A stretch of DNA of 64,000 nucleotides from an uncultured Chloroflexia bacterium (GTDB lineage Bacteria; Chloroflexota; Dormibacteria; CF-121). The position numbers and the translations under genes are program-made. The notes beneath the pieces are model-generated. The model was not told where the DNA came from. It was given only the letters and a program-made list of their open reading frames with translations, and searched no databases. Positions 3,383 to 35,040 of this stretch are shown piece after piece. The stretch spans positions 195,126 through 259,125 of the forward strand of contig CAWCIV010000004.1 in NCBI GenBank assembly GCA_963795805.1. The letters are read 5' to 3'. Numbering within the stretch: the stretch's first letter is position 1; every line of letters starts with the position of its first letter.

Positions 3383-3394
3383 AATGTCGGCACC

Positions 3395-3471
3395 GGTCGG
3401 CTAGCTCAGCTGGTTAGAGCGCTTGGTTCACATCCAAGAGGTCGAGGGTTCGAGTCCCCCGCCGACCACCA
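3395..3471 (+). tRNA. tRNA-Val (anticodon CAC), CCA encoded
   Basis: The cloverleaf folds by hand. Acceptor GGTCGGC/GCCGACC, D stem GCTC/GAGC, anticodon stem CTTGG/CCAAG with loop TTCACAT, and T arm GAGGG-TTCGAGT-CCCCC (one A.C mismatch), followed by ACCA. Confidence 0.88.
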
Positions 3472-7444: not shown

Positions 7445-7478
7445 AATCGAAACAGGTCGATCGGTAAACTAAAGCGCC

Positions 7479-10234: not shown

Positions 10235-11530
10235 GTGGCCGAGGTCCGCCCGTTTCAGGGCGTGATGTACGACCCGTCCCGCGTCGACCTGGCCCAGGTC
10301 GTCGCACCGCCCTACGACATCATCACCCCCGACGACCAGAAGCGCTACTACCGGCAGGATCCGCGCAACGTAGTGCGCCTGATCGCGGGCGAGGTCCGTC
10401 CGTCCGACGCCGCGGAGGACAACAAGTACTCGCGAGCGGCAGGCTTCTTTCGCGACTGGCTCCGAGACGGCATCCTCCGCCGAGAACCGGAGGCGTGCGG
10501 CTACATCTATGAAGAGCAGTTCCTCGATCCGGTCCACGGGAGGCCTCATCGGCGGGTCGGAATCCTCGCCGTCGTCGAGCTCGAGCCATTCGGGACGGGC
10601 ATCCTGGCACACGAGCGCACGCATGCGCGCGCCAAAGCCGACCGCCTGTCCTTGACCAGGGCAGTCGGGGCTAACCTCAGCCCGGTCTTCGCGCTCTTCC
10701 AGGATCCTGCGCACGCGGTTGGGCGCCTGGTCGAGCCCATAATGCGGGAGCCGCCTCGCTTGAGGATCGCCCTCGAGGGCAACGAGGAACACCGAATCTG
10801 GGTCCTGCCGATGACGCGGTTCCGGGAGATCGCCGTCGCGCTGCAGGCCTCACGGCTCTTCATGGCGGACGGCCACCACCGGTATGAGACGGCCCTGAAC
10901 TACCGCAACCGGCAGCGCAGCGAGCACCCGGACGCCCCGACTGACGCCGCCTTCAACTTTGTCCTGATGTTGCTGGTCGATGCCGAGGAACCCGGTCTGA
11001 TGATTCTTCCCACGCATCGACTGCTCCGCGACCTGGAAGCCTTTGACGGTGATCGCCTCCTGCGCGAGCTTGGCGAGTCACGGCCGGTCAGCCGCTACCA
11101 CGACCGCGCCGGCCTGCTCCTGGCGATGCAGGATGGCGGACACCATCGAGTTGGGATTGCCCTTCCGGACGGGACGCATGCCACCGTCGATCTGGCGGAC
11201 CCGGCCGACGGGGACGATCCCGTGGCACGACTCGACGTCTCGCTGCTCCACCGCGAGATCCTGGAGAAACATCTCGGCCTCGGGGAACAGGTTCTCGACG
11301 AGGAGCGCTACCTGACCTACTCCCGGGACCCGGACTTCGTGCTGGACCAGGTGGCGGCCGGGCACGCCCAGGCGGCCTTCCTCTTGCGTCCGCCGGCGGT
11401 TGCGGACGTCATCGCCGTCGCCGGGGCAGGCCGGGTGATGCCCCAGAAGTCGACCTACTTTTACCCGAAACCCCTGTCCGGGATCGTGTTCAATCCGCTC
11501 GATCCATCGATCCGGATCCCACCGGCCTGA
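10235..11530 (+). CDS. DUF1015-family protein
   Basis: 431 aa. MAEVRPFQGVMYDPSRVDLAQVVAPPYDIITPDDQKRYY.. matches the DUF1015 N-terminal signature as I recall it. Starts 7 nt after serA. Confidence 0.7.
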   Translation: MAEVRPFQGVMYDPSRVDLAQVVAPPYDIITPDDQKRYYRQDPRNVVRLIAGEVRPSDAAEDNKYSRAAGFFRDWLRDGILRREPEACGYIYEEQFLDPVHGRPHRRVGILAVVELEPFGTGILAHERTHARAKADRLSLTRAVGANLSPVFALFQDPAHAVGRLVEPIMREPPRLRIALEGNEEHRIWVLPMTRFREIAVALQASRLFMADGHHRYETALNYRNRQRSEHPDAPTDAAFNFVLMLLVDAEEPGLMILPTHRLLRDLEAFDGDRLLRELGESRPVSRYHDRAGLLLAMQDGGHHRVGIALPDGTHATVDLADPADGDDPVARLDVSLLHREILEKHLGLGEQVLDEERYLTYSRDPDFVLDQVAAGHAQAAFLLRPPAVADVIAVAGAGRVMPQKSTYFYPKPLSGIVFNPLDPSIRIPPA

Positions 11531-12722: not shown

Positions 12723-12852
12723 GCTCAGCCGGCACGGGGGTGCATGGGCTCAGGTGGGCTCCGCGGTCTTCAAAACCGACGTTCGGCATCCTTGGCGATG
12801 TCGAAGGACGGATCGTTCCCGTCGCGCCCCCGCCAATTGGCCCGGGTTGAAT

Positions 12853-13980
12853 CTATGCACGGCCGTTGAAGAACGTGCTGATGTTCCCCATCTTGTCGAT
12901 CTTCCTCACCCGGCCGTTATCGTGGTCACCTATGTAGAGGTTGCCGCTGCGGTCAAATAACAACGCGTAGGGATGATTGAGCGTCGCCATCGTTGCCGGG
13001 CCGCCATCGCCCGTGTCGCCGAACTGACCCGTGCCCGCCACTGTCGTGATCATGCCCCGGGGATCGATTCTCCTGACCACGCTTTCGTCTGGCTGGGCAA
13101 CGTAGAGGTTTCCCAAGCTGTCGACGGCTAGGCCGTCGGGGTCCGACAGCAGCGCCCTTGTAGCCGGACCACCATCACCAGCATATCCATGGCTGCCTGT
13201 GCCAGCTACGGTCGTGATTACGCCGTTGCGGTCGACGCGGCGCACGCGATTGTTGGCGGAATCGGCAATGTAGATGTTTTCGGCGCGGTCGAAGGCAATG
13301 CCATATGGCTGATCGAGCTGTGCCAGTGTCGCGAGCCGGCCGTCGCCGGCGAACCCCCGTTCACCGGTGCCGGCCAGAGTCGTCACGATGCCAGCGGGGG
13401 AGATCTTCCGCACGGCGCCGTTATCGCGGTCAGATACATACAGGTCGCCCTGCGCGTCGAGAACAAGGTTGACCGGTGCTCGGAACAGCGCATGACTGGC
13501 TGGGCCGCCGTCTCCTGCGAAAGCGCCCTCGTTGGACAGCAGCGGTGGTATCGGCCCAGAGCCTGCGAACTCACGGACCGTACCGGTGTGGTCGATCTTC
13601 CGGATTCGGTTGTTGCCATGGTCGCTGACAAACAGGTCCCCCGATTCTGCAACTGCGAGCCCAGCGGGGCAGGCGAATTGAGCCTTCGTGGCCAGGCCGC
13701 CATCGCCCGAGAACCCCTGCGTGCCGGTTCCCGCAACGACGCTGAAGCGGTTGCTGGTGCTGATCCGAAAGACCACCGCGTCCTGGCAGTCCACTCCATA
13801 CAGGTTGCCCTTGGAATCGAACGTCAACTGGTCCGGGCCGCCCAGAGCGAAAGCGGCTTGGGCGCGCGGATTAGCCGATGCACCGGCCGGAACGCCGGCT
13901 GATCCGCTGCTGCCGCAGGCCGCTAGGACAAACGCAATAGTCGGCACCAGTGCCGACCACGCTCGACAAACCCGGCGCAT
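12853..13980 (-). CDS. NHL-repeat beta-propeller lipoprotein
   Basis: Lipobox ..FVLAACGSSG. Six repeats of the type GxxGxxGDGGPAT.A.L..P.GLAVD..GNLYVAD..N.RVRKI. Confidence 0.8.
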   Translation of the reverse strand: MRRVCRAWSALVPTIAFVLAACGSSGSAGVPAGASANPRAQAAFALGGPDQLTFDSKGNLYGVDCQDAVVFRISTSNRFSVVAGTGTQGFSGDGGLATKAQFACPAGLAVAESGDLFVSDHGNNRIRKIDHTGTVREFAGSGPIPPLLSNEGAFAGDGGPASHALFRAPVNLVLDAQGDLYVSDRDNGAVRKISPAGIVTTLAGTGERGFAGDGRLATLAQLDQPYGIAFDRAENIYIADSANNRVRRVDRNGVITTVAGTGSHGYAGDGGPATRALLSDPDGLAVDSLGNLYVAQPDESVVRRIDPRGMITTVAGTGQFGDTGDGGPATMATLNHPYALLFDRSGNLYIGDHDNGRVRKIDKMGNISTFFNGRA

Positions 13981-16142: not shown

Positions 16143-17330
16143 ATGCAAAAGATGACCGAGCCCCAGGCGAAGGCAACCAAAGAGGCGGCGATCAAGCCGT
16201 TCCGAATCAGTGTCCCGAAGGCAGACCTGGATGCATTGCACCAGCGACTCGCGCAAACCCGGTGGCCAGACGAACTTGCCAGTGTCGGCTGGGCCTACGG
16301 CGTCCCGCTGGACGAGATGAAAAACCTCGCGAACTACTGGCGCAGTTCGTACGACTGGAGGGCCCAGGAAGCGCGCCTCAACGCATACCCGCAGTTCACG
16401 ACCAGCATCGACGGCCAGAACATCCATTTCCTTCACGTCCGATCTGCGGAGCCGAATGCGTTGCCACTGCTGTTGACGCATGGCTGGCCCGGCTCGGTCG
16501 CCGAGTTCCTGGAGTTGATTGGTCCGCTCATCGACCCGCGCGCCCACGGTGGCGATTCCGTCGATGCCTTCCATCTTGTCATCCCATCATTGCCCGGGTT
16601 CGGGTTTTCCGGACCCACGAGGGAGAGGGGTTGGGATTTCGCCCGCGTCGCACGCGCCTGGGCTGCACTCATGAATCGGCTGGGCTATGGGCGCTACGGT
16701 GCGCAGGGCGGGGACGTCGGCGCGATTGTCTCGCCCGAACTGGGTCACGTTGACCCCGAGCACGTCGTCGGCATCCACGTGAACGCGGCCACCGTCGGCT
16801 TCATTCCCTGGGGCGATGTCGATCCGGCCGAGCTGCCGACCTTCACCCAGATTGAGAGGGCTCGCCTGGCACGGGTGAAAGCCTTTATGTCCGACGGCAA
16901 TGGTTACTTTCAAATGCAGGCGACCCGGCCGCAGACTATCGCGTACAGCCTGAATGACTCGCCCGCTGGCCAGCTGGCCTGGATCGTCGACAAGTTCCAT
17001 GACTGGACACACGGGCCGATGGAGGAGGCGGTCGGGCGCGACCGCATCCTGACCAACGTGATGCTGTACTGGATCACCGGAACGGCCGGCTCGGCCGCGC
17101 GGATGTACTACGAGAACATGCACTCCGCACCGAACTGGGGACGGCCACCGTCGCGAACACCCCTTGCTGTCGCGGCCTTCGCCGAGGACATCTCAATCCG
17201 GCGGTACGGCGAGCAGGCGAATAACATCGTCCGCTGGTCGGACTTCGACCGCGGAGGCCACTTCGCGGCGATGGAGGCGCCCGACTTGTTGGTCGAGGAT
17301 GTGCGAGCGTTCTTCCGGAGCCTTCGGTGA
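16143..17330 (+). CDS. Epoxide hydrolase (alpha/beta hydrolase with EHN N-terminal domain)
   Basis: [26 protein letters not shown], ..[25 protein letters not shown] nucleophile elbow. 395 aa. Confidence 0.85.
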
Positions 17331-17846
17331 TGGAGACCGGGCTCACGCCCGGTTTCCCGATCTTCGCCACGAGCTTGTCAGGAGGCATCTGGCTCCTCAT
17401 CGACCAGCCAGCGATCGCGGCAGCCAACGACGTCGCGCCCCCGCCAGTTGGAACAAAACGGCATGAGCTTCGCGGGCCAAGCCCGGACAGCCTGCAGTTC
17501 GAGCGAATGGAGATGGGGTATAGCGGATTTCTACAATTCTGCTGCCCAGGCGATCTGGAGAAGTTCTACTTCTGGGCTCGCTGGCCGGGTTGGCGCCAGG
17601 AGATAACTGGCCTTCAGACAGATCAAGGGTTGTCCTTCTATCCCTTCCCTTGGAGCAAGCAAGGGAAGGATCTAGCAAAGACCTCTAGGAGACCTGTTCC
17701 CATGAGTGAACTGTGGTACGTCGCTATGGGACGCGTTCGCAGCCCGACACGCTGCCCCCTGATGCGGAAGTCAGAATCAGCTGGCACGACCCTGGCGCCG
17801 TTGGCCCGAGAAACGACTGACGGGACAACTGACGGACAATTAGGAG

Positions 17847-18197
17847 ATGGCCGATAAGCTTCACTATCTGGAGATCGTCAGCAACGATCTAGACACCCTG
17901 ATTGGGCTCTACCAGAGCCTGCACGGTCTCTCGTTTGGTTCCCCAGACCCCGACCTCGGGCAGGCACGTGTCGCGACTCGAGCTGACGGAACTCTCGTGG
18001 GAATCCGGAAGCCCCTGGCCGCTCATGAGCAGCCGATCATTCGGACCTACCTCCAGGTCGACGACATCCAACAAGCCGTGACGACGGCAGAGGAAGGTGG
18101 CGCGACGATCGCCTATCCTCCAAACCGACAGGGACAACGCGGTACGTTTGCAATCGTCATCCAAGGGGGCGTCGAACACGGACTATGGCAACGGTAG
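17847..18197 (+). CDS. VOC (glyoxalase/bleomycin-resistance fold) family protein
   Basis: 116 aa. LHYLEIVSNDLDTLIGLY..., GGAG RBS. Confidence 0.55.
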   Translation: MADKLHYLEIVSNDLDTLIGLYQSLHGLSFGSPDPDLGQARVATRADGTLVGIRKPLAAHEQPIIRTYLQVDDIQQAVTTAEEGGATIAYPPNRQGQRGTFAIVIQGGVEHGLWQR

Positions 18198-19768: not shown

Positions 19769-19884
19769 CGGTATAGCGGACGGCTTAAACGTCGGCCGCC
19801 GCCGAACGACTGTGGACGACTTAGCCCGTCGCGCCCCCGCCAATCCTGAATTGGACGAGTGGCCCCCGGGCCGGCCGCGAGCGC

Positions 19885-20469: not shown

Positions 20470-21140
20470 GCGCTATCGTCAGCGGGCGCAATTTCCGTCA
20501 GCGAGCCAGGCGCATCGGCGCTGCGCCGTATCTCGTCCACGGTAGAAGGGTCCACCAACAAGCCTCGCAAAAGGATTGTGGCGATCTGATCGGCGAGCTG
20601 GGATACGGGTCGGCGTCTACCACTGTAAAGCGTCTCAGTTCTGACCATGATCCCGACCACTATCTCGCGAACGAGAGCGGATGGGAAATCAACGAACTCC
20701 CTGCGAACAATGCCAGCGCTGACGATGCTCTCCACGTTTGCATGCAGCCGTGCGCGTTTCTTCGACCAGCGCGCAAATGAAGGGTTCCCGATGACATCTT
20801 CCGCATAAATCGAGCTCAGGTTGTAGGGCGCCGTGGCGAGATGTGTGACGTCGTGAACCAGGTACTGGTAGAGGCGGACGGCCGGCGAGCTGTCGGCCGC
20901 GGCCAGCGCCAACGTGTAGGGAAGGACCTGGTCGAGATCCCAGCTCAGTAAGGCATCCATAATTGCGGCCTTCGATTTGAAGTGATGGAAGAGAGATGGT
21001 TGTCGGATACCAACGGCCTCCGCGATCTGGCGCGTGGTTGTCGCGTGATACCCGCGGCGCGCGAATAGGTTGGACGCCTCGACGAGGATTCGTTGGCGAG
21101 TGACAGGTTCGGTTCCCCCGGAACTCGCACGAGCTGTCAC
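20466..21140 (-). CDS. TetR/AcrR-family transcriptional regulator
   Basis: ..TRQRILVEASNLFARRGYHATTTRQIAEAVGIRQPSLFHHFKSKAAIM. Start proposed at the GTG at 21140. The track ORF (to 21311) runs over a plus-strand gene remnant. Confidence 0.78.
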   Translation of the reverse strand: MTARASSGGTEPVTRQRILVEASNLFARRGYHATTTRQIAEAVGIRQPSLFHHFKSKAAIMDALLSWDLDQVLPYTLALAAADSSPAVRLYQYLVHDVTHLATAPYNLSSIYAEDVIGNPSFARWSKKRARLHANVESIVSAGIVRREFVDFPSALVREIVVGIMVRTETLYSGRRRPVSQLADQIATILLRGLLVDPSTVDEIRRSADAPGSLTEIAPADDSA

Positions 21141-21162
21141 GGCACGAGCATAGGGCAGGTAG

Positions 21163-21449
21163 GAGACCCCCCGCGGCGGTGTTCCGGGGATGCTGTCTCC
21201 GGAAGCCAGATCGGCGCCATTGCTGCTGGAGGGGAGAAGCTGATCCTGGTGGTTGGCAGCCAGAAGATCGTGCCCAACCTGGACGCTGCATTCCAGCGGA
21301 TCCGAGAGCATGTCCTTCCGTATGAGGACGCTCGGCTACCCGAAATGTTGGGCATCCATACGGCGTGGACGCGGACACTGATCCTGGAGCGGGAGTTGAC
21401 TCCCGGCCGGACGACCGTGGTCCTGGTCAGGAACCCGGTCGGATTTTGA
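21163..21449 (+). pseudogene. 3' fragment of a LUD-domain (DUF162 / YkgG-LutC-like) gene. The N-terminal half or more is missing.
   Basis: ..GSQIGAIAAGGEKLILVVGSQKIVPNLDAAFQRIREHVLPYEDARL...TTVVLVRNPVGF* resembles the C-terminal ~95 aa of small LUD proteins (..KVIVVxGxNKIVxDLdxAlxRI....ITVILVxEELGF*). No matching N-terminal sequence or start lies upstream. Confidence 0.6.
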
Positions 21450-21454
21450 ACGCC

Positions 21455-22441
21455 TCACGCAGCCAGGCGAAACTGGGTGAGAGCGGTGCGCAGGACGTTG
21501 GCCAGCTCGCTCGCCGGATAGCGGCAATCAGCCCAGCGGTCCTTCGACGGATCAAGGTGAGCGTCGAGCGTGTGGTAATTGATGTCTTTCTGGTGTGCCG
21601 TCCGGCGTTCAAGTTCCTTTGATGAAACCAGCCAGGCCTCGGGGTGGACCGCGCCGAGACGCCGATTCCACAACCGCATCACTATCCAGAAATCGTCAGC
21701 TGCCCTGAAGGTCGAGCGCCGCACGCGGACACGCACCTGGTCGTCACCCCGGAGAACTGCCGTCCCCTTGATCTGAAGGTAGGCGGCACGCGGCGATCCG
21801 AGGAGTTGGACGAGGAGGTCGCGGCCATGGATGTCGTAGGCCGGTCGGAAGAGCAGCAGATCTTTCCGATTACCGACCATGAGGTCGGTGATGGTGGCGA
21901 ACTCGTAGACGCCGCCTTGATCGATTTCCAGCGTGGGAAATTGCAGGGGCGCGGCCTGTAGAAGCCGCTCACCGGGAATGAGCTGGCGCCAGAGGTCATC
22001 GCGAGTGAAGCGATACGAAGCGAACTTGTCTTTGCGTGTTGGATAGGCAGCGAGCTGGTACACCTCCGCTCGCAGGGCGCGGTCATACTCTTTGCTCGCC
22101 AGCTTTCGCACGGCAGTAGCGTCAAGGCACCAGTAGATGTCGCCCATTGGCCATCCCTTCGAATTCGCAATCCCCAGCACCATGGAAACTCCGTCCAACT
22201 TCTGAGCTGAGCCGACCCGAACGGTCCAGTGGTACCGCCCTACCTTGTCGAGGGACCCGCTGGTCTTGATCTGGACCATGGCTGGCTGGCCAATCCCGTC
22301 GAGACTGTACGCCCGGTCGATGCCGTGTGCGTCAACCAGCGGGATCCACGGGACGACTCGAAATCCACTGCCGCGGACGACGTCCATGTCGACGAGATGC
22401 TCACCGAGCCAGCCGAGTTCCGGGCGATGGATACGAGGCAC
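21455..22441 (-). CDS. Uncharacterised protein with two tandem restriction-endonuclease-fold (DUF4365-like) halves
   Basis: 328 aa. Half 1: GWLGEHLVDMDVV..VDAHGIDRAY..AMVQIKTS. Half 2: GVYEFATITDLMV..YDIHGRDLLV..AYLQIKGT. Both repeat an E...DxHGxD...QIK pattern and a following beta-rich segment. GTG start 15 nt after the PHP gene stop. Confidence 0.6.
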   Translation of the reverse strand: MPRIHRPELGWLGEHLVDMDVVRGSGFRVVPWIPLVDAHGIDRAYSLDGIGQPAMVQIKTSGSLDKVGRYHWTVRVGSAQKLDGVSMVLGIANSKGWPMGDIYWCLDATAVRKLASKEYDRALRAEVYQLAAYPTRKDKFASYRFTRDDLWRQLIPGERLLQAAPLQFPTLEIDQGGVYEFATITDLMVGNRKDLLLFRPAYDIHGRDLLVQLLGSPRAAYLQIKGTAVLRGDDQVRVRVRRSTFRAADDFWIVMRLWNRRLGAVHPEAWLVSSKELERRTAHQKDINYHTLDAHLDPSKDRWADCRYPASELANVLRTALTQFRLAA

Positions 22442-22456
22442 GCCAGAACAACGACA

Positions 22457-23485
22457 TCACCGCGACATCCCGTCAGCCCAGGCGGCGAGGTCTCTAGCGC
22501 TCATCGTGTTGATCACGCTGCTGGCGGCAACGCCGCAGGCTGCGGCGCGCTCGCAGCCGCGGATCTGCCAGCCGAGCTGCCCGGGGGCGTGAGCGTCGGT
22601 GTCGATCGCGAAGCGGCAACCTGCCTCCACTGCCAGTCGGAGCAGCCGTTTGGGTGGGTCGAGCCGTTCAGGCCGCGAGTTGATCTCAACGGCGACGTCG
22701 AGTCGCTTGCAAGCTGCGAATACGGCTTCCGCATCGAACTCCGACTCTGGCCGCCCTCTGCCTACCACGATGCGGCCCGTGCAGTGGCCGAGCACGTTGG
22801 TGCGCGGGTTCGCGATCGCCTTCAACATTCGTTCGGTCATCTGCTCGCGGGGCATGCGCAGTTTCGAGTGCACGCTTGCGACAACGATGTCGAGCCTCTC
22901 GAGGAGAGCATCCTCCTGATCGAGGGAGCCGTCCTCGTTGATGTCTACCTCTATTCCGGTCAGGATGCGGAAGGGCGCCAGGCCGACGTTGAGCGAGGCC
23001 ACTTCATCAAGCTGTTGCCGCAACCGCTCCGCGGAAAGGCCATTGGCGACAGTGAGGCGCGGGGAATGATCGGTCAGGGCCACATACTCGTGGCCGAGCG
23101 AGCGCGCCGTCTCAGCCATCTCCAGGATGCTGCTGCCACCGTCGGACCAGTCGGAGTGGGTGTGGCAGTCGCCCAGAAGGGCCCCGCGCAATGCGGCGGC
23201 GTCGTCCGCCACGGCGCGACCCTGGGTGGATTCCAGCCGCCGCAGATAGACCGGCACTTCCCCGCGCTGGGCTTCGGTGATAGCCAGCGCGGTCACACCG
23301 CCGATGCCGGGCAGCTGCTGGAGCGAACTCTCACCGATCCTTCGTTCCAGCTCATCCGCGCTGAGCGCTGAAACCAGGTCGGCCGCGCGGCGAAAGGCGC
23401 GCACTCGGTAGGTCGGCTCCTGTGCCAACTCCAGGAGGAAGGCAATTCGCCGCAGGGCGGTGACTGCCGGGGCATCGTGGGGCAC
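22457..23485 (-). CDS. HhH + PHP-domain phosphoesterase (PolX-like C-terminal module without polymerase core)
   Basis: N-terminus ..YRVRAFRRAADLV..LQQLPGIGGVTALAI (helix-hairpin-helix). PHP motifs GDCHTHSDWSDG, ALTDHSP, GIEVDI, VASVHS, LGHCTGR, AIDTDAH are all present. Confidence 0.8.
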   Translation of the reverse strand: MPHDAPAVTALRRIAFLLELAQEPTYRVRAFRRAADLVSALSADELERRIGESSLQQLPGIGGVTALAITEAQRGEVPVYLRRLESTQGRAVADDAAALRGALLGDCHTHSDWSDGGSSILEMAETARSLGHEYVALTDHSPRLTVANGLSAERLRQQLDEVASLNVGLAPFRILTGIEVDINEDGSLDQEDALLERLDIVVASVHSKLRMPREQMTERMLKAIANPRTNVLGHCTGRIVVGRGRPESEFDAEAVFAACKRLDVAVEINSRPERLDPPKRLLRLAVEAGCRFAIDTDAHAPGQLGWQIRGCERAAACGVAASSVINTMSARDLAAWADGMSR

Positions 23486-23487
23486 GG

Positions 23488-25179
23488 CTAAGCGCGTCGA
23501 TCCCTTCGTTCCAGGGTCATCGCGTAGACAGCCGCTTCGGCGCGGCCCCGGAGGCCGAGCTTGCCCAGCACATTGCTGACGTGGTGTTCGACGGTTTTCG
23601 GGGTGACGCCGAGCCTCCGGCCTATCTCCGGGTTGGTCAGGTGCTCGGCCAGCAGGTCGAAGACCTCACGCTCACGGGGGGTCAGCAGGTCCAGGGCGCT
23701 GGGAGGAGGAGGCGGCTGGTCGGGCGCCGGCTCGCCGAGGCGGCGCAACAGGCTGGCAGCTCGTTCGGCATCGGGTGATCCGACGCCGACGTAGATCGAC
23801 AGCGCTGCCCTGGCCTCCCCGACCGCGGCTGCGGGCGCCCTCTCCGCCCGGACCTCGCCAAGATGGAGGTGAAGGGCGGCGCGCAACAGTGGCCAGTCGC
23901 GGTGGCCCAGCAAGTCGATGCCGGACTCATAGGCGGCATCTGCAGCAGCGATATCGCCCCGAAAGTGCGCAACGTGACCGGCTGCGAGTGCGGCCTGGGC
24001 CGCGACCATGGGCGCGGGCGTCTCCCTGGCGAGTGCCGCCAGATGCATCGAAGCGGCCTCTGCAGCGACGTCGTCGCCGGCGCGCAGCTCGGCTTCCACA
24101 AGAATCATCAACAATGGTGCGGCGCGTAGCCGATCCTCGCCCAGGAGACGGAGAGCCTGGCGGCTCACCACTGCGGCCTGGGCATGCCGACCACGGGCGA
24201 GGTGGAGGCGAGCCAGCGGGGCCAGTGCCTCGACCCGGTCGTGCTCGCCCTCGAGAAGGCGGTCCGCGGCGTCAAGGCGGCCCTGTCGAATCCAGAGATC
24301 GGCGAGGGCCGCGCGGCTGCTGGCGCGCTGGTTGTAGCCGGACGTGCGCGCGGTCGCGAGGCCGAGGCGCAGGGCGGTCTCTGCGTCCACCCAGCGGCCG
24401 AGCTCGCAAAGCAGGGTGCCGTAGGCGATGCGGCAGTGCGTGAACATGAAAGTCGGTCGCTGGTCGACAGAGCCGACGAGGTGACGCGCCTCCGCGGCGC
24501 GGATCCAGCTTTCGGCTCGCGACAGGTCACCGGCGCGCTCGCAGGCGGTGACCAGATCGCAGACGACCTGCGACGCCACGATGGGATTGGCGCATTCGCC
24601 GCTCTGAAGCATCGTCATCGCTTCGTCGAGGCGCGCCATGCCCTCCGCCACTCGGCCGAGCGACACATAAGCCAGACCACCATCGGCGAGCGCCTTGCAC
24701 TCCAGGTCGCAGTCGTTGAAGCGCCGAGCGAGGTCGATCGCCAACCGGGCGCCGCCATCGAGCGCCCCCGCGTCGGCGACGCTGCAGCCCACCAGCCCAA
24801 GCGCGACCCAACCCTGCTCGATACAGGGATCCTCCCCTTCAACCAGGCTGCGGGCGCGCAACAACCAGCCCTGCCCCGCCAATTGGTCGCCCACACCGTC
24901 GAATTGGACGCGGCCGAGGGAGACAGCAACGAGGGCGGCGGCACGGTTGAGCCCCGCGCTGCGGAATGCGAGAAAGGACCGCTCCAAGAGGCGCAGCGAA
25001 GTGTCGAACTCGCAGTAGAAGTACTCGATCAACCCGAGCACGTGATCGAGTTCTGGGTCGGGAGAGTTTGCGCTGCGCGCCTGGAGAAGCCCGCGAAGTC
25101 CGACAAAATCGCCGGCCCGTAGTGGCGTTTCCACGATTGCGGCCGGCACTTCGCTGAGGTACGGAAACACCGAATCCAT
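23488..25179 (-). CDS. LuxR-family regulator with long TPR/MalT-like helical repeat region
   Basis: C-terminal LTPREREVFDLLAEHLTNPEIGRRLGVTPKTVEHHVSNVLGKLGL, preceded by Ala/Leu-rich repeats. Start placed at the ATG at 25179 (MDSVFPYL..), because 25180-25602 is antisense to the methyltransferase gene. The stop is 2 nt before the PHP gene start. Confidence 0.78.
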   Translation of the reverse strand: MDSVFPYLSEVPAAIVETPLRAGDFVGLRGLLQARSANSPDPELDHVLGLIEYFYCEFDTSLRLLERSFLAFRSAGLNRAAALVAVSLGRVQFDGVGDQLAGQGWLLRARSLVEGEDPCIEQGWVALGLVGCSVADAGALDGGARLAIDLARRFNDCDLECKALADGGLAYVSLGRVAEGMARLDEAMTMLQSGECANPIVASQVVCDLVTACERAGDLSRAESWIRAAEARHLVGSVDQRPTFMFTHCRIAYGTLLCELGRWVDAETALRLGLATARTSGYNQRASSRAALADLWIRQGRLDAADRLLEGEHDRVEALAPLARLHLARGRHAQAAVVSRQALRLLGEDRLRAAPLLMILVEAELRAGDDVAAEAASMHLAALARETPAPMVAAQAALAAGHVAHFRGDIAAADAAYESGIDLLGHRDWPLLRAALHLHLGEVRAERAPAAAVGEARAALSIYVGVGSPDAERAASLLRRLGEPAPDQPPPPPSALDLLTPREREVFDLLAEHLTNPEIGRRLGVTPKTVEHHVSNVLGKLGLRGRAEAAVYAMTLERRDRRA

Positions 25180-25318
25180 CCTGACACATGCCCGCGCTGG
25201 AAACCTGGGGGTGCAACCCTGGGGGATATCCCCGATGCGGATGGGGGCGAATGCATGAAGACTGGAAGAAACCGCCAGTCCACCAACGAGCCGCGCCGAA
25301 GGCGCCCAGGAGGAAACC

Positions 25319-26359
25319 TTGAGCAACACAACCACGACCGCGCGGCGACCGGACGCCGAAACCCGTAACGCCGGCGCCGCCCCAGCCGCCGTAACGCCCG
25401 ACGCGATCATGCAGACTGCCATGGGGTTCATGGCGGCCAAGCACCTTTTTGCCGCTAACGACCTGGGTGTCTTCGAAGCGCTAGGCCAGGGCCCTGCCAA
25501 CCTCGACGAACTGGCCGCGCGCACCTCGGTGCCGCGCCGCACGCTTCGAATCAGCGTTGACGCGATGGTGGCGTTGGGATTCGTCGTCCGTGAAGGCGAC
25601 ACATATCAAAACGGACCGGTGGCCGCGACCTTCCTGGCCGGCCGCACCCTGGCGGACCTGCGTCCGTTCCTTCGCATGTGGGATCGCATCAGCTACGCTG
25701 CGTGGTCCCATCTCGAGGGCTGCCTTAGAACCGATACGGCCACTCCCACCGAACTCGATGCCGCAAACCGCGACGTCTTTCTTGCCGGCGTGGAGGCGGT
25801 GACGGCGGGCCCGGCGCATGCCCTGGCTGCTTCCTACGACTTCTCCGGTCACAAACGGTTGCTTGACCTCGGCGGTGGGACGGGCTCAATCAGCTGTGCC
25901 ATTGCAAATCGCTACCCGGATATAACTGGCACGATCTTTGATCTTCCTCGGGTGGTTCCCATGACCAGGGAGCGGCTAGCAGCTCTTGGTCTTTCCAATC
26001 GGCTGGTCGCCGCGGAGGGAGACCTGCTGCAGGGCGCGTACCCGCGCGATCATGACGTGGTGCTCCTGGCCAACATCGTCCACTATTTCGATGGCGAGCG
26101 GAACCGTGCCGTGCTTCGACACGCTCGGGAGGCCATGGCGACCGGCAGCCGGCTGCTAGCGCTCGACTTCTGGACAGACGCCAGCCACACCCAGCCCGTG
26201 GCGGCAGCGATGATGGCCGGTGAATTCGCCGTGCAGCTGGGCGGAGACGTTTACAGCGTGGACGATTTCCGCGGATGGCTGGAAGCGACGGGATGGCGCT
26301 ACATCGAGCACCGGCCATTAGCAGGACCGTTCAGCCTGATCGTGGCCGAAGCAGTCTGA
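25319..26359 (+). CDS. SAM-dependent O-methyltransferase (Methyltransf_2 with dimerisation domain)
   Basis: ..AAKHLFAANDLGVFEAL..LDELAARTSVPRRTLRISVDAMVALGFV.., LLDLGGGTGS, ..VLLANIVHYF. 346 aa, TTG start. Confidence 0.82.
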   Translation: MSNTTTTARRPDAETRNAGAAPAAVTPDAIMQTAMGFMAAKHLFAANDLGVFEALGQGPANLDELAARTSVPRRTLRISVDAMVALGFVVREGDTYQNGPVAATFLAGRTLADLRPFLRMWDRISYAAWSHLEGCLRTDTATPTELDAANRDVFLAGVEAVTAGPAHALAASYDFSGHKRLLDLGGGTGSISCAIANRYPDITGTIFDLPRVVPMTRERLAALGLSNRLVAAEGDLLQGAYPRDHDVVLLANIVHYFDGERNRAVLRHAREAMATGSRLLALDFWTDASHTQPVAAAMMAGEFAVQLGGDVYSVDDFRGWLEATGWRYIEHRPLAGPFSLIVAEAV

Positions 26360-26370
26360 TCCATTCCCTC

Positions 26371-26399
26371 TTGACAAACCCCTTGAGGAGTTCCACTAT
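26371..26399 (+). promoter_or_regulatory. Candidate sigma-70 promoter (TTGACA-17-CACTAT)
   Basis: TTGACA at 26371-26376 and a weak -10 at 26394-26399, followed by AGGAGG and the ATG at 26439. Confidence 0.35.
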
Positions 26400-29793: not shown

Positions 29794-30579
29794 CTATTGG
29801 CGATGAGCCTGGCCGGCCCGGTATATCGCTGCCCACTGCCACACATCCAGGTCGACGGTGGAGCCGGTTGGTGAGAATCCCAGTTCTCGAGCCATCGTGG
29901 CGACCTGCTTGCGGCCGCAAATGGCCGACAGCGCGGCGCGGGTCGGCGATGGCGCCCTCGCATAGCAGGCGCGAAGTGCCCTCACATAAGGTGCGCGCTC
30001 TTCGATGGGAAGGAGCGGCGCGGTCCGGCGGCGCACCGACAGCACGGCCGCGTCCTCGATGGGCGGAGGCGAGAAGAGACGGGAGCTCAGTCTCCGGGTG
30101 ACCTGGAACTCGAACCAGGGCTGCCACGACAAATTCAATAGGTTGCTACGGCCGACGAAGGATCGTTTGACGGCCACGTTCCAGGCGACCACCAAATCCG
30201 CCCGCTCAGGAGCCCTAGCGGGGTCATCCAGGAGGTAGTGCAGGATGTCGGTGGTTACGTGGAACGGGATGTTGCTGACAACCTTGTACGGCACAGAAAG
30301 CTTCGGGACCGTCAGGATGTCAGCCTCTTCCACGGTGACATTGTGGTGACCGGCGAATCGTGTCCGAAGCTGAGCGGCCCAGTGCGGGTCGGCTTCAATC
30401 GCCAAGACCTGGAGCGCCCGCCTGGCGAGTTCTTCGGTTAAAGCGCCGTTGCCAGCACCGATCTCCAGAACGAGGTCAGCGCTGCCGACTTCAGCGCTCT
30501 CAACGAGCTGGGCGCAAACCCTCCGGCTGGAGAGGAAGTTCTGCGATAGTGTCCGCCGACGCAAGGAGCGGTCGGACAC
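29794..30579 (-). CDS. rRNA adenine N6-methyltransferase family protein, Erm-like
   Basis: ..RRRTLSQNFLSS.., VLEIGAGNGALTEEL, AIEADP, ..YKVVSNIPFHVTTDIL. 261 aa. The YKVVSNIPF..TTDI and ..VVAWNVAVKR segments look closer to Erm than to KsgA/RsmA. Confidence 0.65.
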   Translation of the reverse strand: MSDRSLRRRTLSQNFLSSRRVCAQLVESAEVGSADLVLEIGAGNGALTEELARRALQVLAIEADPHWAAQLRTRFAGHHNVTVEEADILTVPKLSVPYKVVSNIPFHVTTDILHYLLDDPARAPERADLVVAWNVAVKRSFVGRSNLLNLSWQPWFEFQVTRRLSSRLFSPPPIEDAAVLSVRRRTAPLLPIEERAPYVRALRACYARAPSPTRAALSAICGRKQVATMARELGFSPTGSTVDLDVWQWAAIYRAGQAHRQ

Positions 30580-30637
30580 GGAGGCCGAAGAAGACGAAGG
30601 AGCCCATTACGCCGGCCAGTATAGCGTCTAGGTCGCA

Positions 30638-31078
30638 CTATCCGGTCGCCGGCTCGTACTCAAAGATCAGCTTGGCGATCACCCGCGGATTGAAGGGAAG
30701 GTGGTCGGCAGCCACGAATTCGCCCTGGAGGACATGCGGCCCCGGAGTGAAGGCTTGCAGCGAGACGGTGGCCGAAGGCTGGTAGTTCATCGAGAGCACG
30801 CGGCCGTCGATCGAGAGATGGATGTGGCCCGTATCCGGCGTCAGGTTCTTGGATGTGATGGTCACGATTCGGCCTCCCGTCAGCTGAAACTGGACGTTGA
30901 GGGTCGTCGTCGTCACGACACTATCCGGCTGCGGCTGGAGGATCGTCACGGTCGCCGTCGAACGTGGACGCGGCGTTCCGCTCGGCGATGGCGTCGGGGA
31001 CGCGCTAGCGAATGGAAGGCTGCAGGCGGTCGTCAAGAGAGCCACGGCCGCAAGGGTGACGAGAAACCTGATTTTCAC
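30638..31078 (-). CDS. Lipoprotein, DUF4399-like
   Basis: Lipobox LLTTACS. ..TPDTGHIHLSIDGRVL.. and ..ADHLPFNP.. resemble DUF4399. 4-nt overlap with the copCD stop. Confidence 0.5.
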   Translation of the reverse strand: MKIRFLVTLAAVALLTTACSLPFASASPTPSPSGTPRPRSTATVTILQPQPDSVVTTTTLNVQFQLTGGRIVTITSKNLTPDTGHIHLSIDGRVLSMNYQPSATVSLQAFTPGPHVLQGEFVAADHLPFNPRVIAKLIFEYEPATG

Positions 31079-33072
31079 TTGAGTATCTCCGTGAAACTGG
31101 CCTGGTAGAGCTTGCCGTCGGTCGAGGTTGCCGTGGTATCGAACCGCCAGGTGCCCGCCGTCAGAAGTCCCTGGCCGATGAAGTGCCCGACCTTATCGTC
31201 TGAAAAGCGTGACGCCTGAAGATCGATGGTCGGACCGGCCGCTGGCGTCGCGCTGATGACCGTCCCGTCCGCCATGGGCAGCTCGATATTGCCCTGGAAG
31301 AACGTGGCGTGCACGGCATTGAAGCCGGCTTTTCCCGGATCCACGTATAGCTGCAGCGAGCGGTTGCCGCTGTAATTGACGGTGTAGATATCCGGCAGAC
31401 CCGCCGTCCGCTGAACCGAGATGCGTTCCGGCGGAACGGCGGTGATCAGCGTCAGCGGCACTTCGACCGACTGCTGCCCGCGCTCGATGACGACGGTGAC
31501 GCTCCACCGACCTGCCAGAGAGAGGTTCGTCCCGGTCGCGCCGTACGTGCCGATGCTGCCCCGCCTTAATTCGAGCGTCGATTCTCCAACCGTGGGCCGT
31601 CCCGGGAAGTCGAAGCGGAGCGCCACCCTGCCGGCGCTGACCGCTTGGCCGGTGTCGTAGTCGCCGATGGTCACGGTGAAGTGGCTCGAGCCAGGATAGC
31701 CGGGCGCCACCACCAGGTGCACCCTGACAGTGGTACCGAAATCCTGGCCGTCCGCGCTGATCTGCTGCGGTGGTATCGCAGCCGCGACCGGCGAATAGCT
31801 CGGCGGGGCCAGCGCCGTCAGCACCGCCGCGACCAGGATGACCACTGCGGCCACGCCGATCTCCACCCGGGCAACGCGTCGCAGCCCAGATAGGCTCCGT
31901 TCGACGCGCGGGACGTTGCGGAAGCGGTTGATCGCTCCCAGACCGGCGAGAACGACGAACAGCGCAACCTTGACGATGACGAGGCCTCCAAAGAGCGTCG
32001 AGAACAGGCGAGGTAGCGAGCCGACCTCGTCGATGGAACGCAGCAATCCGGTGACGCCGATCGCCGCGAGGGCAAAGCCCGCCACGAGAGAGAACCGCCG
32101 CACCGCGCCGGCGGCGACCTGCGGCGGCAGGCCGCGGACGCCCAGCAGCAACGCCGCGAGTCCACCGATCCATACCGCGAACGCGGTCAGGTGCGCAAAT
32201 TGGGCTGGCAACATCAGCCAGGCGACGTGGCTCGCATCCGCGTGACTGGTCAGGACGTGGGTAAGGATCGACACCAACGCCAGGGTCCCTGCGGCGCCCA
32301 GAGCGATCCGGTCCCTGGGTGCGCGCAGTCGCGAGGCGATGGCGAGCGCCAGCCCCGCGAGCACGACCGGGGCCGCTTGCATGAGCAGGTTTCCGCTCAG
32401 CGACGTCGAGAAGAACTCGCCCCAATTAACGCCGGCCGCTTCCCGTTGGGATTCGGCCGCCGCGGCCAGGCCAATCAGCGCCGCACCCATGCCGGCGCCG
32501 GCCATCGCGAGCAGCCGCCTCGACGGTGCCGAAAAGGCGAATAGCGAGATCCAGGTGCCGCCCAGCAGCAAGGCGAGACCGACGTAATAGATCCACCGGC
32601 CCGCCACGCCGAGCGGGGCCGGCGGCGGCGTTGAGGGTGCCGCCGTGCCAGCTGGAGCTGGCGCGCCAGCAGGCGACGTGCCGACACCGAAGGCGAACGA
32701 GCCCGCAGCATAGTGACCGTCCACCGCTGAGACGGTTGTCCAGGTGACGGTGTACACGCCGTTGGGCAGCGACGGCAGCGCCACCGTCAGCGTCAGTGGG
32801 TCGCCCGCCATCGGACGCACGCCGTCGCGCTCGAGCCGCTGTCCCCCGGTGTTGAGGACATGGATGATCGACAGCCTGGGGTCAGGCCGTTCGGTAAACG
32901 TGATACTGACCTGCGCCGGCGCGTGGTCGAGGACCGCGCCGTCGGCCGGTGTCGAGGAGCGCAGCAGCGCATGGGCCTCGGCGGAAACCGCGAGGCCCAG
33001 CGCCGCAATCGCTGCGATCAGGAGCGCGAGGACGAGGCGACGCACGTCAGCGAACGGCAGACCCTCGGCCAC
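31075..33072 (-). CDS. Fused CopC-CopD copper resistance/uptake protein with C-terminal extracytoplasmic domain (YcnJ-like)
   Basis: Signal ..AVSAEA|HALLRSSTPADGAVLDHAPAQVSITFTE (CopC with N-terminal His), then about 8 TM segments of CopD type, then a beta-rich C-terminal domain. 665 aa. Confidence 0.82.
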   Translation of the reverse strand: MAEGLPFADVRRLVLALLIAAIAALGLAVSAEAHALLRSSTPADGAVLDHAPAQVSITFTERPDPRLSIIHVLNTGGQRLERDGVRPMAGDPLTLTVALPSLPNGVYTVTWTTVSAVDGHYAAGSFAFGVGTSPAGAPAPAGTAAPSTPPPAPLGVAGRWIYYVGLALLLGGTWISLFAFSAPSRRLLAMAGAGMGAALIGLAAAAESQREAAGVNWGEFFSTSLSGNLLMQAAPVVLAGLALAIASRLRAPRDRIALGAAGTLALVSILTHVLTSHADASHVAWLMLPAQFAHLTAFAVWIGGLAALLLGVRGLPPQVAAGAVRRFSLVAGFALAAIGVTGLLRSIDEVGSLPRLFSTLFGGLVIVKVALFVVLAGLGAINRFRNVPRVERSLSGLRRVARVEIGVAAVVILVAAVLTALAPPSYSPVAAAIPPQQISADGQDFGTTVRVHLVVAPGYPGSSHFTVTIGDYDTGQAVSAGRVALRFDFPGRPTVGESTLELRRGSIGTYGATGTNLSLAGRWSVTVVIERGQQSVEVPLTLITAVPPERISVQRTAGLPDIYTVNYSGNRSLQLYVDPGKAGFNAVHATFFQGNIELPMADGTVISATPAAGPTIDLQASRFSDDKVGHFIGQGLLTAGTWRFDTTATSTDGKLYQASFTEILK

Positions 33073-34442: not shown

Positions 34443-34550
34443 GATGCCAGCCAAACCTCCGGGTGAATAACGCCGAGACGGCGATCCCACAAGCGCATAA
34501 GCTATCCAGAAATCGTCAGCTGCCCTGAAGGTCGTGCGCCGGACGCGGAC
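34443..34550 (-). repeat. Decayed fragment homologous to 21621-21730 (3' part of the tandem nuclease-fold gene)
   Basis: 33-nt identical core ctatccagaaatcgtcagctgccctgaaggtcg (21682-21714 = 34502-34534) with flanking similarity. The minus-strand translation VRVRRTTFRAADDFWI.. matches VRVRRSTFRAADDFWIV.. and then loses frame (1-nt insertion and a 3-nt deletion). Confidence 0.8.
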
Positions 34551-34635
34551 TCACCCGCCCCCGGCGCCGATGAGTTTGGGCGCTCGTGCCCGTCTTAGTG
34601 GGTAAGAAGGCCGATTACCACCTGGAGGATGGAAG

Positions 34636-35040
34636 ATGGACGTGAAATCAAAGGCTGCGATTTCGGAGATACGGACGGTGGCGATTGCCGTCACCGACCA
34701 CGAGCGGTCGATCGACTTCTACGTCAACAAGCTTGGGTTTGAGAAGCGGCTCGATGCGCCATTTGGACCCGGACAGCGGTGGGTCGAGGTAGCGCCACAG
34801 GGTTCTGCAACCACGCTGGCTCTGGCCCCGGAGGGACCCACGTCTCACGCCGGCACGGACACCGGGATCCGCTTCCAGACGGACGATGCCGATGACCTAC
34901 ACGCGCGGCTTAAGGCCATCGGCGTCGACGCCGATGCTGAAGTGATGCGCCTGGGTCCGGGCGTGCCGCCCATGTTCTCCTTTCGCGATCCGGATGGCAA
35001 TCGGCTTTACGTCGTGGAGCGAAGCAAAACTTCGCCCTGA
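34636..35040 (+). CDS. VOC / glyoxalase-family protein
   Basis: ..IRTVAIAVTDHERSIDFYVNKLGFEKRLD.. 134 aa. GGAGG RBS. Confidence 0.75.
   Translation: MDVKSKAAISEIRTVAIAVTDHERSIDFYVNKLGFEKRLDAPFGPGQRWVEVAPQGSATTLALAPEGPTSHAGTDTGIRFQTDDADDLHARLKAIGVDADAEVMRLGPGVPPMFSFRDPDGNRLYVVERSKTSP

Follow-up and report, generated by a model that had tools for sequence, protein, structure and literature searches.

A LuxR/PHP/nuclease gene trio in an uncultured Chloroflexia bacterium is a lineage-specific juxtaposition that includes a putative tandem PD-(D/E)xK endonuclease

Introduction

The described proteins closest to the gene considered here, which we call nuc328, are the DREN domain (= DUF4365) and the endonuclease I-Ssp6803I. 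Published mutagenesis of DREN showed that its D, Q and K residues are required for cleavage and that Q in place of E is catalytic. Both DREN and I-Ssp6803I are active solely as a D2 assembly of four domains; on its own, the DREN domain is a monomer without activity. Two catalytic sites on one chain are found in Type IIT enzymes such as Mva1269I and BsrI, which are thought to be fused ancestral dimers and can cut both strands per binding (PMC4081073). As to genomic setting, selC in enterobacteria is a classical site for the integration of islands (PMC6174562, PMC2704930). The gene nuc328 lies, together with genes for a PHP phosphoesterase of 342 aa (PHP342) and a LuxR-family regulator of 563 aa (LuxR563), in a 64,000-nt stretch of DNA from an uncultured Chloroflexia bacterium, CF-121 (contig CAWCIV010000004.1 of assembly GCA_963795805.1, positions 195,126-259,125, forward strand), the whole of which is called the window below.

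Here we report that the LuxR/PHP/nuclease trio is a lineage-specific juxtaposition and not a system. To judge by sequence and predicted structure, nuc328 itself is an unannotated tandem variant of a known nuclease type, that of the DREN/I-Ssp6803I-like PD-(D/E)xK enzymes. For comparison, about 85 loci encoding nuc328 relatives were collected (labelled L001, L002 and so on); the main clade of nuc328 (47-64% identity) comprises 59 of them, 36 with at least 1.1 kb of upstream sequence. Flanks were compared by targeted tblastn; six-frame stop-to-stop clustering of open reading frames (ORFs) and single-linkage tblastx over-merged the loci through spurious high-GC ORFs.

Results

Junctions of the gene trio

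The trio is encoded as follows:

21455-22441, minus strand: nuc328, 328 aa, putative tandem PD-(D/E)xK endonuclease, DREN/I-Ssp6803I-like (ORF, internal duplication, AlphaFold2 model, Foldseek, motifs)
22442-22471, minus strand: 30-nt leader of nuc328, GGGATGTCGCGGTGATGTCGTTGTTCTGGC, which in this genome also encodes the last four codons and the stop codon of PHP342
22457-23485, minus strand: PHP342, HhH (8-kDa-like) domain and PHP phosphoesterase (Pfam, NCBIfam PRK07945, PolX alignment)
23488-25179, minus strand: LuxR-family regulator, TPR_MalT and GerE, in its 563-aa reading, divergent from an O-methyltransferase gene

Re-reading of the coordinates and junctions bore out the layout given in the initial annotation, with LuxR563, PHP342 and nuc328 as three co-oriented minus-strand ORFs separated by 2 nt (cc) and 15 nt. 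On the coding strand, the joints run ...GCT TAG / cc / GTG, ending in the PHP342 start codon, and ...CGG TGA / 15 nt / GTG, ending in that of nuc328. The operon suggested by this tight spacing is not supported, since comparison with relatives indicates that both spacings (2 nt and 15 nt) are recombination joints. The operon-like appearance arises because the 3' end of the LuxR gene takes the place of the PHP leader and the nuclease leader that of the end of PHP. The native PHP leader, about 25 nt long and common to L014, L071 and L078, is replaced in the window by LuxR 3' coding sequence. Similarly, PHP ends in ...A-W-A-D-R-S/A-stop in L014 and L078; in the window, L071 and L012 the frame enters the nuclease leader and the protein ends in ...A-D-G-M-S-R-stop. 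A scan of 20.9-25.8 kb for sigma-70 promoters and terminators gave nothing better than shuffles.

By its boundaries, nuc328 is recognizable as an autonomous unit of ~1.02 kb made of the 30-nt leader and the ORF. The unit starts with GGGAT, 30 nt before the start codon, and this 5' boundary is identical in at least six contexts, the preceding sequence being PHP (window, L071, L012), an ABC permease gene (L014-16), three others (L002, L058, L082) or, in L017 and L079, a LigD-type polymerase gene whose TAG stop codon abuts the boundary. On the 3' side, ten different contexts were counted, each starting at the stop codon or no more than ~30 nt from it. No terminal inverted repeats were seen between the leader and the trailer.

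Conservation of the trio among relatives

The initial annotation had presented the three genes as a candidate module. Among the collected loci, PHP lies directly beside nuc328 only in the window and in L071/L072, LuxR563 is known only from the window and its 94-95%-identical relatives L012/L013, and PHP is found in 0 of the 36 main-clade loci with sufficient upstream sequence. The module does not survive this survey, and homologues unlinked to PHP or LuxR genes, which the initial annotation had itself named as the outcome that would speak against it, are largely what the search for co-occurrence of PHP and the tandem-domain protein returned.

The linkage to PHP is confined to a shallow clade (at least 85% identity), within which PHP is also deleted, split off by an ABC operon, or absent. 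In L012/L013, the LuxR gene is followed by nuc328, PHP codons ~1-265 being deleted, and nuc328 is intact (95% identity; ratio of non-synonymous to synonymous substitution rates, dN/dS, 0.16). In L014, a 2.6-kb ABC ATPase and permease operon is inserted between PHP and nuc328, exactly at the point corresponding to 22472|22471 of the window. L078 carries PHP alone (84.5% DNA identity), with its native stop codon and no nuc328, and nuc328 occurs without PHP in L002, L017, L058, L079-81 and L082. The homology between the window and L071/L072 covers exactly 23485-21454 (83.5%) and is bordered by unrelated genes on either side, the LuxR gene and a LUD fragment in the window versus Acyl_transf_3 and a PAS-GGDEF-EAL gene in L071. 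Within this block, dS is 0.60 for nuc328 and 0.61 for PHP, with a dN/dS of 0.11-0.16 for both. The two genes thus share a history as one block that goes back to a single joining event within one shallow clade, with at least two later breaks of that block. Separately, a hidden remnant of the PHP 3' end upstream of nuc328 in L014, L002 and L017 was considered and rejected, the alignments being no better than shuffles.

nuc328 as a tandem nuclease fold

The domains and putative catalytic residues of nuc328 map to the following positions:

21977-22441, minus strand: N domain (~residues 1-155)
22400-22402, minus strand: helix-1 residue E14
22265-22333, minus strand: N-domain catalytic motif (D37 22331-22333, D42 22316-22318, Q57 22271-22273, K59 22265-22267)
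21458-21934, minus strand: C domain (~residues 170-328)
21902-21904, minus strand: E180
21767-21835, minus strand: C-domain catalytic motif (D203 21833-21835, D208 21818-21820, Q223 21773-21775, K225 21767-21769)

The two halves of nuc328 are homologous as judged by BLASTP (E=4e-4) and by profile-profile comparison (94% probability, E=9e-8). The AlphaFold2 (AF2) model (predicted local distance difference test 74, predicted template modelling score 0.57) contains two alpha-beta domains connected by a disordered linker at residues 159-176, each with the secondary-structure order H-E-E-E-E... A Foldseek search of this model against the PDB returned I-Ssp6803I (1.6e-4; 2ost, TM 0.66 on target), the DREN domain of SPARDA (3e-4), then Hjc and EcoRV, with probability ~1.0, each structure aligning to one nuc328 domain. 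The structure search proposed in the initial annotation therefore did find a nuclease fold, and the description of the protein as two homologous nuclease-fold halves with Q replacing E was confirmed by BLASTP, profile-profile comparison, AF2 and Foldseek, the Q variant being catalytic in DREN.

Residues E14/D37/D42/Q57/K59 and E180/D203/D208/Q223/K225 are invariant in an alignment of 23 family members (A1) and nearly so in two-domain relatives at 20-35% identity (alignment A3), where D208 is sometimes E. Combining the model with A1, D42 precedes strand 43-47 and Q57-x-K59 lies within strand 54-59; in the second half, D208 precedes strand 209-213 and Q223-x-K225 lies within strand 219-231. Each domain thus has the metal-site spacing D-x4-D-x14-Q-x-K, and nuc328 shows the hallmarks of the PD-(D/E)xK superfamily, namely the fold, an acidic residue at the start of beta2 and (D/E/Q)-x-K on beta3. 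The dN/dS of nuc328, 0.12-0.26, indicates purifying selection. The DUF4365 pattern named in the initial annotation proved right in kind; a direct Pfam match was not obtained, and only relatives approached the family, below threshold.

Neither nuc328 nor each of its halves matched Pfam, NCBIfam, PADLOC or PHROGs, and an exact look-up of the 310-aa annotated form returned no record. Nothing was found by tblastn in phage and plasmid collections or in a scan of IMG/VR. A full-library profile search gave 222 cluster representatives, including ~160-aa single-domain proteins which match either half of nuc328 and carry the motif E...P-x-V-D-D-x-G-V-D...Q-V-K. Below threshold (20-22 bits against a cut-off of 24.3), 6/21 of these single-domain relatives scored against DUF4365 and 5/21 against PDDEXK_5, and one relative has a precomputed PF11645 match. 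The single-domain relatives are stand-alone genes, found in an integrative and conjugative element (ICE) in one case, next to a Bil defence locus in another and in a metabolic context in a third, a mixture that therefore does not settle the role of nuc328. When searched as a profile against PDB sequences, the single-domain relatives gave nothing beyond spurious immunoglobulin matches (E>0.1), and a homologue search with A3 was saturated by the close family and yielded no distant two-domain contexts.

Three uncharacterised giant-virus proteins in BFVD (A0A076FH51, A0A1V0SIJ8 and A0A3G5A8P9, from Aureococcus anophagefferens virus, Klosneuvirus and Hyperionvirus) align over both nuc328 domains (~320-350 columns, E ~1e-8), and the tandem architecture is therefore also present in Nucleocytoviricota. 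We also observed that the C terminus of nuc328 (21455-21463) is Ala-Ala in 23/23 members of A1 (mostly R-L/A-A-A), a feature not found in more distant relatives. This ending resembles that of the ssrA degradation tag and, by analogy, may be a proteolysis signal holding the nuclease level low.

The usual neighbourhood of the nuc328 family

Outside the window clade, 27 loci have at least 3 kb of downstream sequence and are informative as to neighbours. A stand-alone LigD-type polymerase gene lies 0.04-6.3 kb from nuc328 in 24 of them, and among the three exceptions, the sequence of two stops at the PrsW gene, which comes before the polymerase. The polymerase has 461-467 aa and matches ligD_pol (TIGR02778, 211 bits) and Pfam LigD_Prim-Pol. 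At least four arrangements were found, the commonest being nuc328-cupin-PrsW-polymerase, all co-directional. Others keep this order with inserted regulators or have spacings of 3-5 kb, and in the 73-75% clade, sister to the window clade, the polymerase is directly followed by nuc328. Direct adjacency of the two genes was seen in L079-81, L017 and L058. Depending on the clade, nuc328 is found on one side of the polymerase or on the other, which hints at a functional link without proving it. Neither Ku nor a ligase gene was seen beside the LigD-type polymerase, and the 64-kb window contains no LigD-type polymerase.

In the metagenome-assembled genome (MAG) SMAG_U1827, a window-type copy (L002) coexists with a polymerase-linked one (L005), which makes the window clade a translocated paralogue. 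Both nuc328 and the polymerase are under purifying selection and share dS within a clade; dN of nuc328 is 4-5 times that of the polymerase between clades and ~2 times within them. Of 58 full-length nuc328 copies, 7 are frameshifted. Recurrent neighbours with a role in DNA-end processing or gap filling are PHP (here), the LigD-type polymerase (most loci) and Exo_endo_phos (one), and a link to DNA-end chemistry is therefore plausible.

The cupin gene lies within 100 nt after nuc328 in 33/47 main-clade loci. It encodes 128 aa (e.g. L073 8997-9383), typically starts ~10-70 nt after nuc328 (L001, L020-L036, L041-L066, L073) and is closest, below threshold, to the NCBIfam model for (R)-mandelonitrile lyase; the next gene is usually that of a PrsW-like intramembrane protease, then comes the polymerase. 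An apparent insertion of main-clade nuc328 between AA_permease and cupin (L073 against L010) was rejected, L010 having a 2.1-kb insertion upstream and nuc328 being syntenic. In L084/L085, a convergent Exo_endo_phos gene (L084 3933-4655) overlaps the nuc328 3' end by 12 nt, and in L079-81 a gene for an Imm1-family immunity-like protein (L079 3439-3855) converges on that end.

The variable island at tRNA-SeC

The landmarks of the surrounding segment are listed below:

12736-12835, plus strand: tRNA-SeC, anticodon TCA (Rfam RF01852, 56.4 bits; ARAGORN)
19825-19844, plus strand: exact direct copy of the tRNA-SeC 3' end, 20 nt, read as an att-like remnant
21093-21449, plus strand: truncated LUD_dom gene that matches just the C-terminal third of the profile and converges on the nuc328 stop codon
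34447-34550, minus strand: remnant of a decayed second nuc328 copy (gene nt 712-814), adjoining the block that flanks PHP in L014
34636-35040, plus strand: glyoxalase-family gene; block 34551-35025 and the stretch immediately upstream of PHP in L014 are 89% identical

Synteny places the trio segment in a variable island that begins at the tRNA-SeC gene. The synteny of the window with L014 (77%) ends at 12838, just past the 3' end of tRNA-SeC, and resumes only at 34551-35025, the glyoxalase block, which abuts PHP in L014. The shared blocks are 6 kb apart in L014 and 21.7 kb apart in the window, so that, as in tRNA-anchored islands, a tRNA gene stands at one boundary and the content varies among relatives. 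The decayed nuc328 fragment (104 nt, 86.5% identical, with a 1-nt indel) sits directly beside the glyoxalase block.

Relatives contain perfect 68-69-nt copies of tRNA-SeC positions 33-100 (anticodon loop to 3' end) in tandem. In L012, three partial copies (7471-7538, 9505-9572, 11021-11089) and the full gene (12869-12968) bound islets of 1.5-2 kb; L051 has two partial copies (1426-1494, 3363-3430), and L018 and L002 one each, that of L002 lying 40 nt past the nuc328 stop codon. Just beyond these partial copies the flanking sequences are similar to one another, a pattern to be expected if related elements integrated repeatedly. The scanned ORFs of the window segment and of the L012 islets include no integrase, and Rfam detected only two tRNAs, and no intron, in the window.

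The island genes scanned encode an NHL protein, an extracytoplasmic function (ECF) sigma factor, an epoxide hydrolase, TetR and MarR regulators, a CrtC-like protein, an Erm-like methyltransferase, CopC/CopD and glyoxalases; defence, restriction-modification, phage or mobile-element genes were not found among them. In consequence, the initial view of the trio as defence cargo is not upheld; that of a patchwork accessory segment with a truncated neighbour and a decayed paralogue fits what we found, that is, the LUD_dom fragment, the 34447-34550 fragment and the start at tRNA-SeC with att-like partial repeats.

Two gene fragments were seen in the island, 17327-17857 matching only the last 77 positions of DUF2625 and 21093-21449 no more than the last third of LUD_dom; both fit a segment subject to repeated deletion and recombination. 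The interval 29794-33072 holds a gene for an Erm-like rRNA adenine dimethylase (RrnaAD) and a fused CopC-CopD copper-resistance gene.

PHP342 and the LuxR-family regulator

The initial domain calls for both proteins (TPR/MalT-like region and HTH in the regulator; HhH and PHP with intact motifs, PolX-like and lacking the polymerase core, in PHP342) agree with Pfam, NCBIfam and the PolX alignment. PHP342 matches HHH_8 (1.9e-9) and PHP (1.3e-11) in Pfam, and NCBIfam PRK07945 (2e-159, 530 bits against a cut-off of 250) over residues 7-338 of 342. The nine PHP ligands H108, H110, D115, H140, E179, H206, H234, D297 and H299 correspond to identical residues in D. radiodurans PolX. Alignment to PolX models and structures is restricted to the PHP domain, residues ~100-337 (PolX PHP domains, 1e-50), and the N terminus contains only HHH_8, no Pol-beta-like nucleotidyltransferase core being found in PHP342. 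With a dN/dS of 0.11-0.15, the protein classifies by these matches as an ordinary PRK07945 member, a PolX cut down to the HhH head and the PHP 3'-end-processing domain. A full-text literature search for a published function of PRK07945 returned nothing.

LuxR563 belongs with the divergent O-methyltransferase gene and is an ordinary member of a known family. The partner gene is the following:

25319-26359, plus strand: small-molecule O-methyltransferase (Dimerisation and Methyltransf_2), divergent from LuxR

The block 23506-26390, which comprises the LuxR and O-methyltransferase genes, has 94% DNA identity between the window and L012/L013. In Pfam, the regulator matches GerE (7.8e-16) and TPR_MalT (7.4e-13) and shows no match to AAA_16 or AAA_22, so that it lacks the ATPase of the LAL/MalT type (ATPase, TPR and GerE); the regulators of 924-934 aa near other nuc328 homologues, unlike LuxR563, do carry an AAA domain. 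The maximal ORF is 704 aa, but the extension overlaps the divergent O-methyltransferase gene, and a 96.6%-identical relative is called at 557 aa.

TPR and GerE regulators occur 0-3.5 kb from nuc328 in three contexts, the window, L002 (3677-6478) and L010 (11595-14369), with ~10 further similar loci; they are mutually only 25-37% identical, and the window holds a single GerE match by tblastn. A plant-type small-molecule O-methyltransferase gene is near nuc328 in two arrangements, divergent from LuxR in the window (25319-26359) and 28 nt downstream of nuc328 in L014 (6617-7861). Just beyond the O-methyltransferase gene, L012 carries an IS3-family transposase gene (HTH_Tnp_1/rve, 197-1248); the window sequence differs there.

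Discussion

A preferred reading and its rivals

We favour, and consider fairly probable, a reading in which the trio consists of three independent units joined by recombination in a variable island, nuc328 being a tandem nuclease and a translocated paralogue with its home beside the LigD-type polymerase. LuxR563, PHP342 and nuc328 would have been brought together by lineage-specific recombination in the tRNA-SeC island. Two nuc328 chains would pair and rebuild the four-domain (D2) assembly, a step proposed because the characterised relatives cut only in that form, and the paired protein would make Mg2+-dependent cuts in duplex DNA. From the motifs and the model, nuc328 is likely to be an active Mg2+-dependent endonuclease. 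The window copy would be a translocated paralogue of a gene that usually resides beside a stand-alone LigD-type polymerase in Dormibacterota-like soil bacteria, to which the family is largely confined. With end-processing enzymes, nuc328 might act on DNA ends, gaps or breaks, and would not be a defence effector. Its participation in break or gap processing is offered only tentatively, and a role in defence or selfish spread, the two combined, appears doubtful as well.

Several observations weigh against this reading. The 7/58 frameshifts fit a dispensable or selfish gene as well as a repair gene; the polymerases are 82-94% identical and the genomes related, so that the neighbourhood may be inherited synteny; and the cupin and PrsW genes intervene in the commonest arrangement. 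The PHP-nuc328 block has stayed intact through two context changes with matching dS, which could reflect selection for the pair. Furthermore, no Pfam threshold is reached by nuc328 or its halves, and the AF2 model is only moderate, with low confidence in the catalytic loops 35-39 and 200-205 and uncertain inter-domain packing.

The persistence of that block is at the heart of a rival explanation, in which PHP342 and nuc328 form a genuine two-gene module, the nuclease cutting and the HhH-PHP protein cleaning 3' ends as a 3'-phosphatase or 3'-5' exonuclease, like PolX. The 2033-bp block is kept in two unrelated contexts (window and L071/L072) with equal dS and a dN/dS of 0.11-0.16, L014 keeps both genes in one co-directional cluster, the decayed second nuc328 copy of the window sits where L014 has PHP...nuc328, and elsewhere nuc328 adjoins other end-processing genes (LigD-type polymerase, Exo_endo_phos). 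However, the junction is secondary, the nuclease leader replacing the native PHP stop codon, L012/L013 have lost most of PHP and yet keep nuc328 intact and constrained, L078 has PHP alone, nuc328 occurs without PHP in L002, L017, L058, L079 and L082 as well as throughout the main clade (0/36), and all PHP-linked loci fall in one shallow clade and count as one evolutionary event, which makes such a module unlikely. Somewhat less likely still is a self-propagating homing-type cassette, a single-chain version of I-Ssp6803I spreading via empty sites while repair genes hitch-hike or mend the breaks. The best structural match is indeed a homing endonuclease and relatives score against PDDEXK_5; nuc328 is a discrete unit, whose 5' boundary is the same in at least six contexts and whose 3' end is at the stop codon; one MAG holds paralogous copies, the window a decayed fragment, and 7/58 copies are frameshifted; and between-clade dN is 4-5 times that of the adjacent polymerase. 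Against it stand the lack of an intron or intein context (Rfam finding only two tRNAs in the window), the one stable syntenic position of the main-clade gene with dS shared with its neighbours, the failure to find a filled-versus-empty site pair with restored flanks, the absence of nuc328 from phage, plasmid and viral collections, and purifying selection throughout.

A new type of defence system against phages or plasmids, under the control of LuxR, would agree with the variable island, with a nuclease fold common to the SPARDA effector, with the ICE and Bil-locus settings of some single-domain relatives and with TPR and GerE regulators 0-3.5 kb from nuc328 in three non-homologous contexts. 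We regard it as highly improbable, as neither PHP nor nuc328 matches PADLOC, none of the island genes scanned around the trio is of the defence, restriction-modification, integrase or phage kind, LuxR563 goes together with the O-methyltransferase gene and has a secondary junction to PHP, and the trio exists only in the lineage of the window, most homologues being in a conserved chromosomal neighbourhood. The nuclease fold of nuc328 could also be inactive and serve for DNA binding or as a scaffold, given that its activity is predicted only, that the catalytic loops are poorly modelled and that it is apparently tolerated as a stand-alone gene with no partner methyltransferase or immunity gene. 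Inactivated PD-(D/E)xK domains normally lose catalytic residues, though, and nuc328 retains two complete sets that are invariant in the family and nearly so at 20-35% identity, in a Q-x-K variant that is catalytic in DREN; inactivity is very unlikely on these grounds. Finally, though with low probability, nuc328 might be a self-contained mobile nuclease cassette, a pseudo-dimer that pairs into a four-domain enzyme, makes site-specific double-strand breaks, moves as leader plus ORF and persists beside end-processing genes (LigD-type polymerase, PolX-type PHP, EEP nuclease) that mend or exploit the breaks. If true, this would amount to a previously undescribed partnership of nuclease and repair enzymes in a barely studied phylum.

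Returning to the three-unit reading, the case shows that recombination joints can leave spacings of 2 nt and 15 nt as a by-product, and that such tight packing need not always mark an evolved operon. For a nuclease type that is switched on by four-copy assembly, a natural single-chain tandem would represent a simpler version, already half assembled; nuc328 would help to show how such activity is gated and could serve as a compact nuclease scaffold. Its family is unannotated in Pfam, NCBIfam, PADLOC and PHROGs. The polymerase neighbourhood elsewhere and the PolX-type PHP here together provide a testable lead to an unknown step of DNA break or gap processing.

Comparison with known systems

LigD polymerase-domain loci (Prim-Pol of the archaeo-eukaryotic primase, AEP, type; non-homologous end joining, NHEJ, and base excision repair) involve the same type of polymerase that is the usual neighbour of nuc328. 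A nuclease partner like nuc328 is not known to be part of the described LigD/Ku pathway. As for selC-type islands, they likewise have a variable segment starting from the tRNA-SeC 3' end, and in relatives of the window partial tRNA copies bound islets; the window differs in that no integrase was found in the ORFs scanned and only a 20-nt remnant is kept. In PADLOC-DB v2, neither nuc328 nor PHP342 gave a match and LuxR563 matched only through its HTH, which agrees with the initial statement that the genes are absent from known defence-system models. PHP342 compares with PolX through its PHP domain, which aligns with D. radiodurans and T. thermophilus PolX and keeps all nine metal ligands, whereas the polymerase fingers, palm and thumb are missing.

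Type IIT enzymes resemble nuc328 in having one polypeptide with two nuclease sites. They possess a cognate DNA methyltransferase and defined sites, whereas the halves of nuc328 are homologous copies of one domain. A restriction-modification reading was rejected, there being no DNA methyltransferase and nearby only the O-methyltransferase and RrnaAD.

The DREN domain (DUF4365, PF14280) of SPARDA shares with nuc328 the acidic...D...Q-x-K site with Q for E, the N-domain catalytic residues of nuc328 corresponding to DREN E37/D41/Q62/K64 (Q and K also numbered Q60 and K62), for which mutagenesis has demonstrated a requirement in DREN activity. The spacing is ~x18-20 in DREN and D-x14-Q in nuc328, and DREN is one domain that tetramerises on a filament, whereas nuc328 has two domains in one chain. 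SPARDA consists of a DREN-APAZ fusion beside a short Argonaute; nuc328 is without APAZ domain and Argonaute partner, its neighbours being PHP, LuxR and the LUD fragment. Unlike I-Ssp6803I (PDDEXK_5, PF11645), nuc328 is not intron-encoded and is twice the size by duplication, the sequence similarity between the two is visible only via relatives, and no homing-type target site or empty-site pair for nuc328 was identified at the compared loci. I-Ssp6803I is nevertheless the best structural match, and its D2 tetramer of small domains is an assembly that a nuc328 dimer could reproduce.

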